This document shows positions 3,401-62,452 of a DNA stretch of 64,000 bases, piece by piece. Position numbers and translations under genes: made by a program. The stretch is from Escherichia phage fDHCT2: the sequence record OR427838.1. One strand, written 5' to 3'. The notes beneath the pieces are model-generated. The model was not told where the DNA came from. It ran no database searches and saw nothing but the letters and a program-made list of their open reading frames with translations. Within the stretch, counting starts at the first letter, position 1, and the number at the start of each line of letters is the position of its first letter.

Positions 3401-3923
3401 ATGCGAGAACCGTCTTTAAACGCTCTTCAAATTTCTGAAGCAGAGCTTGGCGTTCAGCTCGTTGTGATTTGTACTGCTCGATACGACCTGAAGTGAGGGC
3501 GTACTGTTCGTTTACTGATTCCCGCATGAATTCAGGAATCTCTTTACAAGCTTTGATTTCGTCAAACTTATCAATAACAGCTTGTTGTTCAGCAATCAGA
3601 TTATCGAAATAAGCGATATCAGATTTAACGTTTGCCAGGTCGGATTCAGTAGGCATTAAACGTTTGTTACGTTCAGCTTGATAAGCTTGATTGTTTTCAC
3701 GACTCCAGTGAAGAGTACGTTTTTTGTTAGTGTTTTTATAGAGCTCTACAATACCAACTGAATCGATGACTGCAATCCAGTTCCAATGGCTTTTGTAAAT
3801 CTCTCCTCCAGATACGGTAATCTCATTACCACAAGCAACATCGTTAAAGAACTTGCTTTGTTTTTCAGATTTGAAATTACCGTTGTTGAAATTAATCAGT
3901 GAAAAAATATCTTTAGCGTTCAT
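3399..3923 (-). CDS. hypothetical early protein (174 aa)
   Basis: ORF with GGAGG SD and early promoter at 3950-3978. Confidence 0.6.
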   Translation of the reverse strand: MNAKDIFSLINFNNGNFKSEKQSKFFNDVACGNEITVSGGEIYKSHWNWIAVIDSVGIVELYKNTNKKRTLHWSRENNQAYQAERNKRLMPTESDLANVKSDIAYFDNLIAEQQAVIDKFDEIKACKEIPEFMRESVNEQYALTSGRIEQYKSQRAERQALLQKFEERLKTVLA

Positions 3924-3949
3924 GATAACCTCCAGTAGTTGATAGGTCT

Positions 3950-3978
3950 ATAGTATCATTTCTACTGGAGATGTAAAC
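3950..3978 (-). promoter_or_regulatory. early promoter (sigma70-like; -35 GTTTAC, -10 TACTAT)
   Basis: Minus-strand GTTTAC-17nt-TACTAT followed by conserved TAGACCTATCAA and GGAGG SD. Confidence 0.65.
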
Positions 3979-12055: not shown

Positions 12056-12514
12056 TTAAAGATAGATTACTTTCGTGCTGGTTTTACCTTCTAAACGTTT
12101 AGAGTTAACAAATGCCATACGACATTTTAATGAATATCCTTTATCAGGATGTTTACGATCTACGGTCATACCTAGCCATAAGGTTTTATCGGTAATTTCG
12201 AGACGCAATGGACGATACACTTTACCAGGGACAATTTCGGATTCTACATCAGGCAGAGGTTCCTGGATTAAGAATTCATGGATTTCTTTAACATGGTTAT
12301 GGAGTTGCTTGAATAAAGCAAAAACGTATTTTTCGTCGATTTCACGTTGGATAGCACGGTCCAACAAGTGATTAGAGTACTTAATAAAGAAAGCTGGGAC
12401 ACCGCTCTTGATGGCGGCTTTTTTGATGGACGCGTTAAGTTCACGAAATTCGGTTTCGAACTGACGACGTAATTTGTTGCGGCGGATGAATACTTCTGAA
12501 TTAATTTCTGACAT
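12056..12514 (-). CDS. regB: RegB endoribonuclease
   Basis: Close match to recalled T4 RegB (EVFIRRNKLRR...YSLKCRMA); start ATG 12514 with GGAG SD; early promoter 12543-12571. Confidence 0.85.
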   Translation of the reverse strand: MSEINSEVFIRRNKLRRQFETEFRELNASIKKAAIKSGVPAFFIKYSNHLLDRAIQREIDEKYVFALFKQLHNHVKEIHEFLIQEPLPDVESEIVPGKVYRPLRLEITDKTLWLGMTVDRKHPDKGYSLKCRMAFVNSKRLEGKTSTKVIYL

Positions 12515-12542
12515 TTTGTAATCTCCTGTAGTTGATAGGTTT

Positions 12543-12571
12543 ATAGTATCATGTCTACAGGAGATGTAAAC
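12543..12571 (-). promoter_or_regulatory. early promoter of regB
   Basis: GTTTAC-17-TACTAT then GGAG SD and regB ATG. Confidence 0.65.
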
Positions 12572-18376: not shown

Positions 18377-18589
18377 TTACTTTTTATTGAAAAAGTACAT
18401 TTTACCTTTAGGAGATAAGGATACACGAAGGGCGTTACCAATACCAACTGAACATTTAACCAGGTCAGCAGATTTCAATTCACCAAATGCTTGACGAAGG
18501 TCTCCATCACGAGTGTTAACCATCAGGCATTTAGCACCAGCTGCACGAACTTCGTTTAACATGTTGATTGCTTGGTTAGAAAGTTTCAT
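18377..18589 (-). CDS. small hypothetical protein
   Basis: Trimmed to ATG 18589 (MKLSNQ) because early promoter 18626-18654 lies inside the longer track ORF. Confidence 0.5.
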   Translation of the reverse strand: MKLSNQAINMLNEVRAAGAKCLMVNTRDGDLRQAFGELKSADLVKCSVGIGNALRVSLSPKGKMYFFNKK

Positions 18590-18625
18590 TTTATTCTCCA
18601 TTTCACTCTGTTGTTTTGATAGGTC

Positions 18626-18654
18626 TATAGTATCACACCTATAGACCTTGTACA
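18626..18654 (-). promoter_or_regulatory. early promoter (-35 GTGTAC, -10 TACTAT)
   Basis: Conserved module; lies inside the long track ORF, supporting the shorter gene call. Confidence 0.55.
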
Positions 18655-18667
18655 CTGTTTTGTGCAA

Positions 18668-26698: not shown

Positions 26699-26884
26699 TT
26701 ACTCACCTTTAGAGATTTTATCCATAACGAAAGAAATTGAACCAATTAAGAATGCCACTACTAAAGAAATTATATTCTCGGAAGTTGAAAGCATATCGAG
26801 CATGAATCCTGCAAACATACTAAAGCCGAAAGCAGTAACAGCGGCCAGTGCAGTAACATTTCTAATTAATTCACAACGTTTCAT
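26699..26884 (-). CDS. small membrane protein
   Basis: Trimmed to ATG 26884 (MKRCEL) with GGAG SD; early promoter 26921-26950. Confidence 0.5.
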   Translation of the reverse strand: MKRCELIRNVTALAAVTAFGFSMFAGFMLDMLSTSENIISLVVAFLIGSISFVMDKISKGE

Positions 26885-26920
26885 TTTATTCTCCAATCAC
26901 TCATTTGTTTTGATAGGGCT

Positions 26921-26950
26921 ATAGTATCACCACTAAAGCCCGTTGTAAAC
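26921..26950 (-). promoter_or_regulatory. early promoter
   Basis: GTTTAC-18-TACTAT plus conserved downstream block. Confidence 0.55.
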
Positions 26951-59149: not shown

Positions 59150-60709
59150 ATGAAAAAGAATGCATTAGTTCAAAAATGGTCCGCTCTGCTGGAAAACGAA
59201 GCCCTTCCTGAAATCGTGGGTGCTTCTAAACAAGCTATCATCGCTAAAATTTTCGAAAACCAGGAACAAGACATCCTGACTGCTCCGGAATACCGTGATG
59301 AAAAAATCTCTGAAGCATTTGGTTCTTTCCTGACCGAAGCTGAAATTGGTGGTGACCACGGTTATGATGCTACCAATATCGCAGCTGGCCAGACTTCTGG
59401 TGCTGTAACTCAGATTGGGCCGGCAGTAATGGGTATGGTTCGTCGTGCTATTCCTCATCTGATTGCTTTTGATATTTGTGGTGTTCAGCCTCTGAATAAC
59501 CCTACCGGCCAGGTATTTGCCCTTCGTGCAGTTTACGGTAAAGACCCTATCGCTGCTGGCGCTAAAGAAGCTTTCCATCCGATGTATTCTCCGGACGCTA
59601 TGTTCTCTGGTCAGGGTGCTGCTAAATCTTTCGAAGCACTGGCCGCAAGCAAAGTTCTGGAAGTTGGTAAAATTTATTCCCACTTCTTCGAAGCTACCGG
59701 TGCTGCACACTTCCAGGCTGTTGAAGCTGTAACCGTTGATGCTGCTGCTACCGATGCCGCTAAACTGGATGCTGCTGTTACCGCTTTGATTGAAGCTGGT
59801 AAGTTGGCTGAATTGGCTGAAGGTATGGCTACTTCTATCGCTGAACTTCAGGAAGGCTTTAACGGTTCCCAGGATAACCCATGGAACGAAATGGGCTTCC
59901 GCATCGACAAACAAGTTATCGAAGCTAAATCCCGTCAGCTGAAAGCAAGCTACTCTATCGAACTGGCACAGGACCTTCGTGCAGTACACGGTATGGATGC
60001 AGATGCTGAACTGTCCGGTATCCTTGCTACCGAAATTATGCTCGAAATCAACCGTGAAGTTATCGATTGGATTAACTACTCTGCACAGGTCGGTAAATCT
60101 GGTATGACCAACACCGTTGGCGCTAAAGCTGGTGTGTTTGACTTCCAGGACCCGATTGATATCCGTGGTGCTCGTTGGGCCGGTGAGAGCTTTAAAGCCC
60201 TTCTGTTCCAGATTGATAAAGAAGCAGCCGAAATCGCTCGTCAGACCGGTCGTGGTGCTGGTAACTTCATCATCGCTTCCCGTAACGTAGTTAACGTACT
60301 GGCTGCAGTTGATACTTCTGTAAGTTATGCAGCTCAAGGTCTGGGTCAAGGTTTCAACGTTGACACAACCAAAGCAGTATTTGCCGGTGTTCTTGGCGGT
60401 AAATATCGCGTTTACATCGACCAGTATGCACGTTCCGATTACTTCACCATCGGTTATAAAGGCGCTAACGAAATGGACGCAGGTATCTACTATGCTCCGT
60501 ACGTTGCACTGACCCCACTGCGTGGTTCCGATCCGAAGAACTTCCAACCGGTAATGGGCTTCAAAACTCGTTACGGTATCGGTATTAACCCGTTCGCTGA
60601 CCCGTCTGCACAGGCTCCTACCAAACGTATTCAGAGCGGTATGCCTGACATCGTTAACAGCCTTGGTCTGAATGGTTACTTTAGACGTGTCTACGTTAAG
60701 GGAATTTAA
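59150..60709 (+). CDS. 23: major capsid protein
   Basis: Strong match to recalled T4 gp23 (SKQAIIAKIFENQE...GGDHGY...NIAAGQTSGAVTQIGPAVMGMVRRAIP). Confidence 0.95.
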   Translation: MKKNALVQKWSALLENEALPEIVGASKQAIIAKIFENQEQDILTAPEYRDEKISEAFGSFLTEAEIGGDHGYDATNIAAGQTSGAVTQIGPAVMGMVRRAIPHLIAFDICGVQPLNNPTGQVFALRAVYGKDPIAAGAKEAFHPMYSPDAMFSGQGAAKSFEALAASKVLEVGKIYSHFFEATGAAHFQAVEAVTVDAAATDAAKLDAAVTALIEAGKLAELAEGMATSIAELQEGFNGSQDNPWNEMGFRIDKQVIEAKSRQLKASYSIELAQDLRAVHGMDADAELSGILATEIMLEINREVIDWINYSAQVGKSGMTNTVGAKAGVFDFQDPIDIRGARWAGESFKALLFQIDKEAAEIARQTGRGAGNFIIASRNVVNVLAAVDTSVSYAAQGLGQGFNVDTTKAVFAGVLGGKYRVYIDQYARSDYFTIGYKGANEMDAGIYYAPYVALTPLRGSDPKNFQPVMGFKTRYGIGINPFADPSAQAPTKRIQSGMPDIVNSLGLNGYFRRVYVKGI

Positions 60710-60740
60710 TAACATAGGTTATTAATTCTTAAAATTATTT

Positions 60741-60770
60741 GGGAGACTTCGGTCTCCCATTCTTGTTTCT
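60741..60770 (+). terminator. terminator after gene 23 (GGGAGACTTCGGTCTCCC)
   Basis: Hairpin followed by T-rich tract. Confidence 0.65.
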
Positions 60771-60773
60771 GTA

Positions 60774-61040
60774 CTATGCAATCTTAACTCGGCGGTTGAT
60801 GATATCACGGAAGTCAATACGATTTTCTTGGATTTTCAGCCAGTTACCAAATTTGTCTTTGGTATGGGTAGAATATTCGCCGTTCCACCAGAAGTCAGTT
60901 TCATAAGCCAGAGCTTCGTATTTCTTAACCAATGCATTAACTGCATTACCGTTAGGATTGGTACCGAATTTTTCTACCAGAGTTTTGATATCTTTGTCAA
61001 GGTTAGAAAGCGTGGTACGGATAAAGTTTAATTTGTTCAT
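60774..61040 (-). CDS. small hypothetical protein, antisense-oriented insert between genes 23 and 24
   Basis: Trimmed to ATG 61040 (MNKLNFIRT) with GAGGAG SD and early-type promoter 61070-61100. Confidence 0.5.
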   Translation of the reverse strand: MNKLNFIRTTLSNLDKDIKTLVEKFGTNPNGNAVNALVKKYEALAYETDFWWNGEYSTHTKDKFGNWLKIQENRIDFRDIINRRVKIA

Positions 61041-61069
61041 TTTTAATCTCCTCATGTTTTGATAGGTCT

Positions 61070-61100
61070 ATAGTAACACGACGGCTTTTTGTGTGTAAAC
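61070..61100 (-). promoter_or_regulatory. early-type promoter inside the late region
   Basis: GTTTAC and TACTAT-type hexamers plus conserved TAGACCTATCAA block upstream of ORF 60774-61040. Confidence 0.5.
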
Positions 61101-61106
61101 CACTTT

Positions 61107-61114
61107 TATAAATA
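61107..61114 (+). promoter_or_regulatory. late promoter TATAAATA (gene 24)
   Basis: Octamer upstream of gp24. Confidence 0.7.
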
Positions 61115-61143
61115 AAATTATATTCTCAATAAGGAAAATAGCA

Positions 61144-62424
61144 ATGGCTAAAATTAACGACCTTTTAAAAGAGTCGACCATTACTTCGAGTTCTTCGATT
61201 GGTCGTCCAAATTTAGTAGCTTTAACCAGAGCTACGACCAAACTAGTTTATACCGACCTTGTAGCTCAGCAGCGTACTAACCAACCTTTGGCTGCTCTAT
61301 ACGGTGTCAAATATCTTACAGAAAAAGACGAATTATCTTTCCAGACGGGTGCTACATATTCCGGCGCAGTATCCGCTAAAGACCGTGCCACTATCCCAGT
61401 TTTCACTGCAGGCGCTGTTTATGCTAAAGATGATTTGTTCCAATTTGAAAACGTAGTTTATAAAGCTTTGGTAGCAACCCCATTTGCCGGTGCTACTGGC
61501 GATGAATACGAACAACTTCAAGAAGCTATTGTTAAGTTGACTATCCGTATTATGTCCGAAGCCGCACTGACTGAGCGTTTTGAAGGCCCTCAGGATGTAG
61601 ATATTTCTGAAGCCAAATTCGTAGTTAATAAATGGAACGCTCCAGTTAAATCCCGTAAGTTGAAGAGTACTGTTACTGTAGAATTGGCTCAAGACCTCGA
61701 AGCAAATGGTTTCGATGCCCCTAATTTCTTGGAAGACCTCCTGGCTACTGAAATGGCTGATGAAATCAACAAAGATATTCTTCAGTCCCTGGTTACGGTT
61801 TCCAAGCGTTATAAAGTTGAAGGGTTGTGTGATGATGGCTTAATTGACCTGAGTTATGCTAACTCACCGGAAGCTTCTCGCAAGCTTTATGAATTGGTGT
61901 GTGAAATGGTTTCTCATATCCAGCGCGCAACCTCTTATACGGCAACTTATGTAGTAGCGAGTACTCGTGTAGCTGCTGTTCTGGCTGGTTCCGGATGGTT
62001 AAGACATACCCCACAGAACGACAAATATCTTTCTGCAAGTGCATACGGATTCCTGGAAAACGGTTTGCCTCTGTATTGTGACACCAACACGCCTATTGAT
62101 TATGTTACTGTAGGTGTTAAAGAGGAATTTGGTGGGAAGGAAGCGGTAGGTTCTCTGTTCTATGCACCGTATACCGAAGGATTAGATTTGGCTGACCCGG
62201 AACACGTGGGTACATTTAAAGTGGTCGTTGACCCTGAAAGCCTGCAACCATCTATTGCATTAATGGTTCGATATGCACTGGCTGCTAACCCTTATACGGT
62301 TACTGCTGATGATAAACAAGCCCGTATTATTGATGCGACTAATATGGATTTGATGGCGGGACGTTCTGATATGTCTGTATTGCTTGGTGTGAAACTTCCT
62401 AAAGTTTTGACTGAATTAAATTAA
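61144..62424 (+). CDS. 24: capsid vertex protein
   Basis: 426 aa (T4 427), gp23-like fold expected; late promoter 61107-61114. Confidence 0.9.
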   Translation: MAKINDLLKESTITSSSSIGRPNLVALTRATTKLVYTDLVAQQRTNQPLAALYGVKYLTEKDELSFQTGATYSGAVSAKDRATIPVFTAGAVYAKDDLFQFENVVYKALVATPFAGATGDEYEQLQEAIVKLTIRIMSEAALTERFEGPQDVDISEAKFVVNKWNAPVKSRKLKSTVTVELAQDLEANGFDAPNFLEDLLATEMADEINKDILQSLVTVSKRYKVEGLCDDGLIDLSYANSPEASRKLYELVCEMVSHIQRATSYTATYVVASTRVAAVLAGSGWLRHTPQNDKYLSASAYGFLENGLPLYCDTNTPIDYVTVGVKEEFGGKEAVGSLFYAPYTEGLDLADPEHVGTFKVVVDPESLQPSIALMVRYALAANPYTVTADDKQARIIDATNMDLMAGRSDMSVLLGVKLPKVLTELN

Positions 62425-62425
62425 C

Positions 62426-62452
62426 AAAAAAGGGACCGTGAGGTCCCTTTAT
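62426..62452. terminator. bidirectional terminator between gene 24 and rnlB (GGGACCGTGAGGTCCC flanked by A- and T-runs)
   Basis: Hairpin with U-run in both transcript senses, between convergent genes. Confidence 0.7.

Follow-up and report, generated by a model that had tools for sequence, protein, structure and literature searches.

A probable moron-like early accessory cassette in reversed orientation between head genes 23 and 24 of a Dhakavirus

Small early accessory genes with promoters of their own are the rule in genomes of T4-type phages. In phages RB49 and phi1, cassettes composed of a promoter-early stem-loop (PeSL) and an ORFan were described (Arbiol et al. 2010, PMC2839356). Morons of tailed phages are autonomous inserts of promoter, gene and terminator between conserved genes (PMC2839356). 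The third relevant precedent is segD of T4, a gene for a free-standing GIY-YIG homing endonuclease, which separates gene 23 from gene 24 and has the opposite orientation. [quoted passage not shown] Time-resolved omics from 2022 assigned segD to the class "early RNA / middle protein" and genes 23 and 24 to late/late, with SegD protein intensities rising from the first minutes (PMC9697503, supplements); the "early" class of that study is broad, with 215 genes of onset within 4 min (PMC9697503), and its RNA-seq may not have been strand-specific. We found no transcriptome or promoter study of Dhakavirus or Gaprivervirus in the literature that covers the 23-24 locus.

Here we analyze this locus in Escherichia phage fDHCT2 (OR427838.1). 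The window, i.e. the whole analyzed stretch of 64,000 nucleotides, belongs to Dhakavirus (JS98 group, T4-type), with 96% identity to Escherichia phage MX01 and 82-95% to other Dhakaviruses. Its late-gene block (30654-62424, 31.8 kb) is encoded on the plus strand throughout, save for one minus-strand ORF (60774-61055). The relevant features are as follows.

59150-60709, plus strand: gene 23 (gp23, major capsid protein), the left flank; 98.7% amino acid identity to the annotated MX01 major head protein
60740-60759, no strand assigned: GC-rich hairpin, 8 bp stem and tetraloop, common to the convergent gene 23 and ORF transcripts
60774 to about 61103, minus strand: whole cassette of promoter, leader, Shine-Dalgarno sequence (SD) and ORF, 330 bp, aligned to the empty gaps of ZX14, RB6 and pKp20
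60774-61040, minus strand: ORF of 88 codons plus stop (stop 60774-60776), equal to JS98 orf173, MX01 ORF174, VR7ORF190c and phrog_6003
61048-61053, minus strand: SD GAGGAG, read in the sequence 7 nt 5´ of the ATG at 61040
61059-61075, minus strand: 17-mer TACTATAGACCTATCAA, exact match of a repeated module, with the predicted -10 hexamer TACTAT (61070-61075) and start-site region
61077-61078, minus strand: TG of the predicted extended -10 (TGtTACTAT, 61070-61078), found by scan and conserved in cross-phage alignment
61094-61100, minus strand: predicted -35 element GTTTACA of T4-early type (GTTTAC at 61095-61100), found by consensus scan and kept across phages
61107-61114, plus strand: gene 24 late promoter TATAAATA, a motif match 30 nt before the gene 24 ATG
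61144-62424, plus strand: gene 24 (gp24, vertex protein), single copy, the right flank; 97.4% amino acid identity to the annotated MX01 head vertex protein
3939, 5340, 8601, 12532, 18616, 24295, 26910 and 61059, minus strand: copies of TACTATAGACCTATCAA with at most 3 mismatches

A preliminary description of this DNA had placed an 88-aa minus-strand ORF with a GAGGAG SD between the major capsid and vertex genes, in the gap that segD occupies in T4. All of this agrees with our data: the ORF and its SD are found in the sequence, both flanks match annotated MX01 head proteins, and T4 segD does reside in this gap. The further claim that the ORF lies inside the late capsid operon holds as far as strand layout is concerned, because the ORF is the sole minus-strand ORF of at least 70 aa in the late block. 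The word operon is overstated, since genes 23 and 24 are already divided by the gene 23 terminator hairpin and by a separate gene 24 late promoter.

Judged by its pattern of substitutions, the ORF is a real gene under strong purifying selection. Its pairwise dN/dS within Dhakavirus is 0.06-0.14, with dS reaching 0.63, and it matches the phrog_6003 profile over the full length (E 7.6e-48, residues 1-88 on profile positions 1-88 of 90). The orthologue in JS98 (orf173, phrog_6003) has 92% amino acid identity and the same position, with no difference of substance, and annotation as hypothetical protein already exists in JS98, MX01, IME08 and VR7 and in more than 100 genomes in all. The GGAG core of the SD is kept across homologous loci. 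An in-frame ATG at 61055 would extend the product to 93 aa; this codon runs into the SD and is itself preceded by none, so it is an unlikely start. The GC content of the ORF is 38%, close to the window mean of 40%, versus 48% for gene 23 and 43% for gene 24. No paralogue of the ORF was found elsewhere in the window.

Comparison of the 23-24 gap across T4-like phages, which the preliminary description had proposed as a check, yielded the 330-bp block, alone or together with segD, empty gaps of 80-90 bp, or segD alone. In otherwise colinear relatives, the empty gap contains only the hairpin terminator and TATAAATA. Empty sites with matching flanks occur in four genera, among them Tequatrovirus (RB6, HY03, Lutter), Jiaodavirus (pKp20) and Kanagawavirus (ZX14); in Lutter the hairpin and TATAAATA are annotated as terminator and promoter. 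The window flanks "cattcttgtttctgta" and "tttataaata" are contiguous in ZX14, where "tgggagacttcggtctcccattcttgtttctgtag" is directly followed by "ctttataaata". Both halves of this ZX14 sequence match the window flanks, and the insert can thus be delimited as 60774 to about 61103, with boundaries good to about 2 nt.

The insert itself contains no terminator; this part would be played by the resident hairpin of gene 23, read from the opposite side. Presence of the hairpin in empty-site phages indicates that it is older than the insert. The hairpin (60740-60759) is called terminator-like on both strands; its plus-strand T-tail is good, that of the minus strand (AATAATTTTA) weaker. In VR7 the hairpin has T-runs on either side and is a strong terminator in both directions; the T4 hairpin receives no minus-strand terminator call. 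At the opposite end, the early -35 element terminates 3 nt from the right junction, so that the A/T-rich late-promoter region also serves the early promoter as its upstream region. As a side observation, an A/T-rich palindrome taataacataggttatta lies directly 3´ of the gene 23 stop (60709-60727, plus strand); it is present in IME08 too, not in JS98.

The arrangement is close to that of a moron: a discrete insert between adjacent conserved late genes, absent from colinear relatives, with its own predicted promoter and with expression that would be independent of its neighbors. Three differences should be mentioned. The cassette lacks its own terminator and borrows the gene 23 hairpin; the phage is virulent, so there is no prophage expression; and the promoter is of the phage's own early type, not foreign. 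The possibility of a moron had been raised in the preliminary description, and it gains support from the 330-bp insert of promoter, SD and ORF that relatives lack, from purifying selection and from homologues in arrays of small ORFs (see below).

The candidate promoter of the ORF has the features of a T4-type early promoter, namely a GTTTAC(A) -35 element, a -10 of the form TAnnnT 16-18 nt downstream with TGn, and an A/T-rich upstream region. The scan calls TTTACA-18-TACTAT with the TG extension present. Upstream, an A/T-rich UP-like region at 61101-61130 (aatataattttatttataaaagtg on the minus strand) overlaps the late promoter. From these elements we infer a transcription start near 61062-61064 on the minus strand. 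A generic sigma-70 scan gives 10 sites versus 10.7 expected from shuffles, i.e. no enrichment, and the case for the promoter therefore rests on the repeated module and on conservation across phages.

Firstly, TACTATAGACCTATCAA with at most 3 mismatches has nine matches in the window, eight on the minus strand and one, with 3 mismatches, on the plus strand. The expected count is 0.18, and none of 100 shuffles reaches 9. Apart from the copy at 61059, whose nearest neighbor is at 26910, the other seven on the minus strand fall in the early region (3.9-27 kb), and all eight have a GTTTAC-like -35 upstream as well as SD and start codon some 20-30 nt downstream. The ORF is thus preceded by the same conserved module as the early region, as first proposed. 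Secondly, the -35 element and TGnTAnTAT are kept in the window, MX01, JS98, VR7, two metagenomic phages and T4, while the spacer sequence between them drifts. Such retention of the hexamers next to a changing spacer is the hallmark of a working promoter.

The spacer is 18 nt long here, 16 nt in the other seven modules and 17 nt in MX01 and JS98. With a spacer longer than those of its sister modules, this copy of the promoter may be weaker. Relative to MX01 and 04086, the spacer (61079-61094, minus strand) contains one extra C (gcc versus gc), which changes 17 to 18 nt and could be either a real weakening change or a sequencing difference.

Neither a middle promoter with MotA box (TGCTT) on the minus strand upstream of the ORF nor a late TATAAATA on the minus strand near or upstream of it was seen; rnlB, the minus-strand gene upstream, is closed off by a strong bidirectional terminator (62429-62450). 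Taken together, this leaves no alternative route to expression of the ORF. The early promoter and the gene 24 late promoter were described at the outset as standing back-to-back, which is accurate: 6 nt separate TATAAATA from the early -35 of the opposite strand. This geometry is kept in every lineage examined, T4 included.

The resemblance to T4 goes further. The junctions of segD beside the gene 23 hairpin and the gene 24 TATAAATA are the same as those of the insert. In alignment, the 90 nt before the segD ATG are colinear with the window, MX01, JS98, VR7 and two metagenomic phages, and the shared order is gene 24 start, its ribosome-binding site, TATAAATA, (A/G)TTTACA, a variable spacer of 17-19 nt, TGnTAnTAT, leader and GGAG. 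The segD match itself reads TTTACA-17-TATTAT with TG (TGaTATTAT), 10 of 12 positions (T4, NC_000866, 107253-107281, minus strand, equal to L008 3754-3782, minus strand). That the ORF and T4 segD would share one promoter is our own reading of the alignment rather than established annotation.

T4 segD therefore resembles our cassette in slot, antisense orientation, junctions and colinear early-type promoter, and its RNA is classed as early. It differs in cargo, which here is an unrelated 88-aa protein without GIY-YIG domain. We considered relatedness of the ORF to SegD and rejected it, as hhalign against T4 SegD gives a probability of 0.7% and Pfam yields no GIY-YIG hit. Some Dhakaviruses carry both genes in tandem: in IME08, IME341, vB_EcoM_005 and 04086, a segD homologue follows directly 3´ of the ORF, starting 3 nt past its stop (TAA-AAT-ATG). 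Situated between ORF and hairpin, this tandem segD lacks its own promoter and changes the last two codons of the ORF. Three states of cargo hence occur behind one promoter, i.e. the ORF (window), the ORF with segD (IME08, 04086) and segD (T4).

Besides Dhakavirus, the 119 phage records in which tblastn detects the ORF belong to Gaprivervirus, at about 60-65% identity, and to a single Acinetobacter phage, at 41%. When profiles were run against 5.8 and 1.8 billion proteins, no more than about 20 further clusters came up, with proteins of 87-93 aa, and the family amounts to 22 protein clusters. An exhaustive HMM search of 1.84 billion representatives returned 12 hits, among which the long multi-stretch ones look, by eye only, like low-complexity matches and one is a chimeric contig. 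In the metagenomic protein P0009 (160 aa), the last 35 residues correspond to the ORF and are joined to unrelated sequence, probably through chimeric assembly. Homologues at 28-41% identity keep the same length, and the residues M1, K3, F6, N30-G31-N32, A45 and Q71 are invariant in the family.

The cargo diverges down to 28% identity while flanking gp23 and gp24 stay above 90%. For example, JS98 and the metagenomic phage L009 share 92% identity in gp23, 94% in gp24a and 29% in the ORF; for JS98 and VR7 the respective values are 97%, 89% and 60%. A divergent subfamily (P0018, P0013) occupies the same antisense slot beside gp23. Two explanations present themselves: exchange of alleles through recombination within the conserved flanks, or a rate of evolution of the gene far above that of its neighbors. 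Between the window and JS98, gp23 (97.5%) and the ORF (92%) are far more alike than gp24 (68%), which points to mosaicism with a breakpoint in or close to the promoter region. Concerning gene 24, the window and MX01 have a single copy with about 68% amino acid identity to gp24a of JS98, VR7 and L009; these three phages possess tandem 24a/24b paralogues.

In the Acinetobacter phage ABPH49 and the metagenomic P0021, P0015 and P0024, the homologues reside in long arrays of small same-strand ORFs of large non-T4 phages. Such surroundings in unrelated phages speak against a capsid-specific role.

The predicted protein has 88 aa, 10.4 kDa and pI 9.5, is hydrophilic and contains no cysteine. An AlphaFold2 model built on an alignment of 18 sequences (pLDDT 93, pTM 0.78) has helices 3-25 and 31-48, a beta-hairpin 52-61/67-71 and helix 77-87. 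The product is, as modelled, a small, basic, soluble protein of helix-helix-beta-hairpin-helix fold. Searches with the protein in Pfam, NCBIfam, PADLOC and by PDB sequence profile gave nothing above noise. Foldseek against PDB and BFVD, run with a first AlphaFold2 model (8 sequences, pLDDT 75), found only its own homologue from the Acinetobacter phage. The JGI name of P0018, "NADPH-dependent curcumin reductase CurA", is spurious (12.8 bits versus a cut-off of 440). The idea, also voiced initially, that the ORF encodes a regulator of late transcription finds no support, as the protein resembles no known regulator in sequence and fold searches.

We suggest, with a probability of roughly 70%, that the locus is a compact moron-like early accessory cassette, placed in reverse in a Dhakavirus, with the terminator of gene 23 on one side and the late promoter of gene 24 on the other. 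Host sigma-70 RNA polymerase would start at the T4-early-type promoter (GTTTACA, 18 nt, TGtTACTAT) in the first minutes of infection. The resulting monocistronic mRNA of about 320 nt would have a leader of about 22 nt and the GAGGAG SD; at least some of it would terminate at the hairpin of gene 23, which is older than the insert and is here approached from the opposite direction. The 88-aa protein would then act in trans as a dispensable early accessory factor in host takeover or counter-defence. Early timing of the ORF is presumed from its promoter and from the T4 analogue segD, which stands behind a colinear promoter and whose RNA is classed as early. As for its role, the early promoter, a divergence or exchange of cargo that far outpaces the flanks, and homologues among small same-strand ORFs suggest that the protein is probably directed at the host and is not a component of the capsid or of late transcription; the class is assigned from context.

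A slot and promoter common to the ORF and T4 segD would make the 23-24 gap a conserved "early-expression dock" with varying cargo. In its full form, this idea states that in T-even-type phages the late promoter of gene 24 is fused to an orthologous early promoter, that the cargo is exchanged or evolves at the pace of an arms race, that the 88-aa family is a counter-defence or host-takeover factor with a fold unseen in solved structures, and that T4 segD is expressed early through the same dock. We regard this combination as speculative and rather unlikely to hold as a whole.

Alternatively, the cassette might be part or relic of a segD element, the ORF being a promoter-proximal passenger or landing pad kept by homing. 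The promoterless homologue of T4 segD located 3 nt past the ORF stop in IME08, IME341, vB_EcoM_005 and 04086 is in line with such an origin, and T4 segD with its colinear promoter and identical junctions fits as well. Most of the 119 ORF-bearing genomes, however, are without segD, the ORF family is unlike SegD (hhalign 0.7%) and devoid of a GIY-YIG domain, homologues in unrelated phages occur without any endonuclease, and purifying selection argues for a function of the ORF itself. We consider this origin improbable.

Little credence can be given to the view that the main role of the cassette is cis-regulation and the ORF is secondary. Here, a polymerase footprint over TATAAATA, or antisense read-through into gene 23, would tune or delay genes 23 and 24. 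The back-to-back promoter geometry in every lineage examined, T4 included, is compatible with it, and the poor minus-strand U-tract (AATAATTTTA) in the window together with the T4 hairpin not called on the minus strand makes read-through plausible. On the other hand, the terminator of VR7 is strong and bidirectional, many T4-type phages run the same late genes with an empty gap, and T4 keeps early and late transcription temporally apart (PMC9697503). Strong purifying selection on the ORF, moreover, means that the protein itself matters.

A chance ORF behind a chance promoter match in the spacer, with no gene at all, is practically untenable, for although generic sigma-70 matches are as frequent as in shuffles and small ORFs are common in the window, it is excluded by selection (dN/dS of about 0.1 over dS 0.5-0.6), by distant homologues of the same length (28-41% identity), by the confident AlphaFold2 model of the protein, and by the repeated 17-mer module far above chance.

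An accessory cassette of the proposed kind does not alter the understanding of T4-type phages, and the gene was already annotated as hypothetical. It provides a base-level example of one slot in the most conserved structural module with three cargos and one conserved early promoter. It also supplies a concrete candidate promoter for T4 segD, for which the review found none, in contrast to omics data, in which its RNA is early and its protein is detected. Small, basic and with a confidently predicted fold, the 88-aa family has no structural match and diverges far faster than its neighbors; it would be a sensible choice when early phage proteins are screened for action on host or defence.

Compared with the PeSL and ORFan cassettes of RB49 and phi1, the locus shares a repeated sigma-70-type early promoter directly 5´ of an orphan ORF with SD, as well as presence or absence of the cassette between close relatives, and other modules of the window carry stem-loops. 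The stem-loop of this copy, however, is not significant (-9.2 kcal/mol, z = -1.3); the cassette is situated in the conserved head module and not in a hyperplastic region; and a second flanking PeSL for mini-circle excision is missing. It is best filed with the early-promoter ORFan cassettes of T4-type phages, as a positionally unusual member whose gene has already been catalogued.

The module appears to be common to T4-type genera, as sequences about 90% identical to its -10, leader and SD (query 61041-61079) precede unrelated small genes of other genera, e.g. beside "FRD2 protein" in phage WFbE185 and in Enterobacter phages. Within the window, the modules at 3909-3978 and 12502-12571 (both minus strand) contain 11-bp inverted repeats with RNA folding z-scores of -4.2 and -4.35, and those at 18586-18655 and 26880-26950 (minus strand) contain weaker ones. 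The 5´ arm of the repeats lies in the spacer between -35 and -10, and the 3´ arm over the SD. RNA reading through from upstream would hide the SD in this way, while RNA from the module's own promoter would be without the 5´ arm. These inverted repeats resemble PeSLs and the translational gating of the T4 e, soc and I-TevI type.
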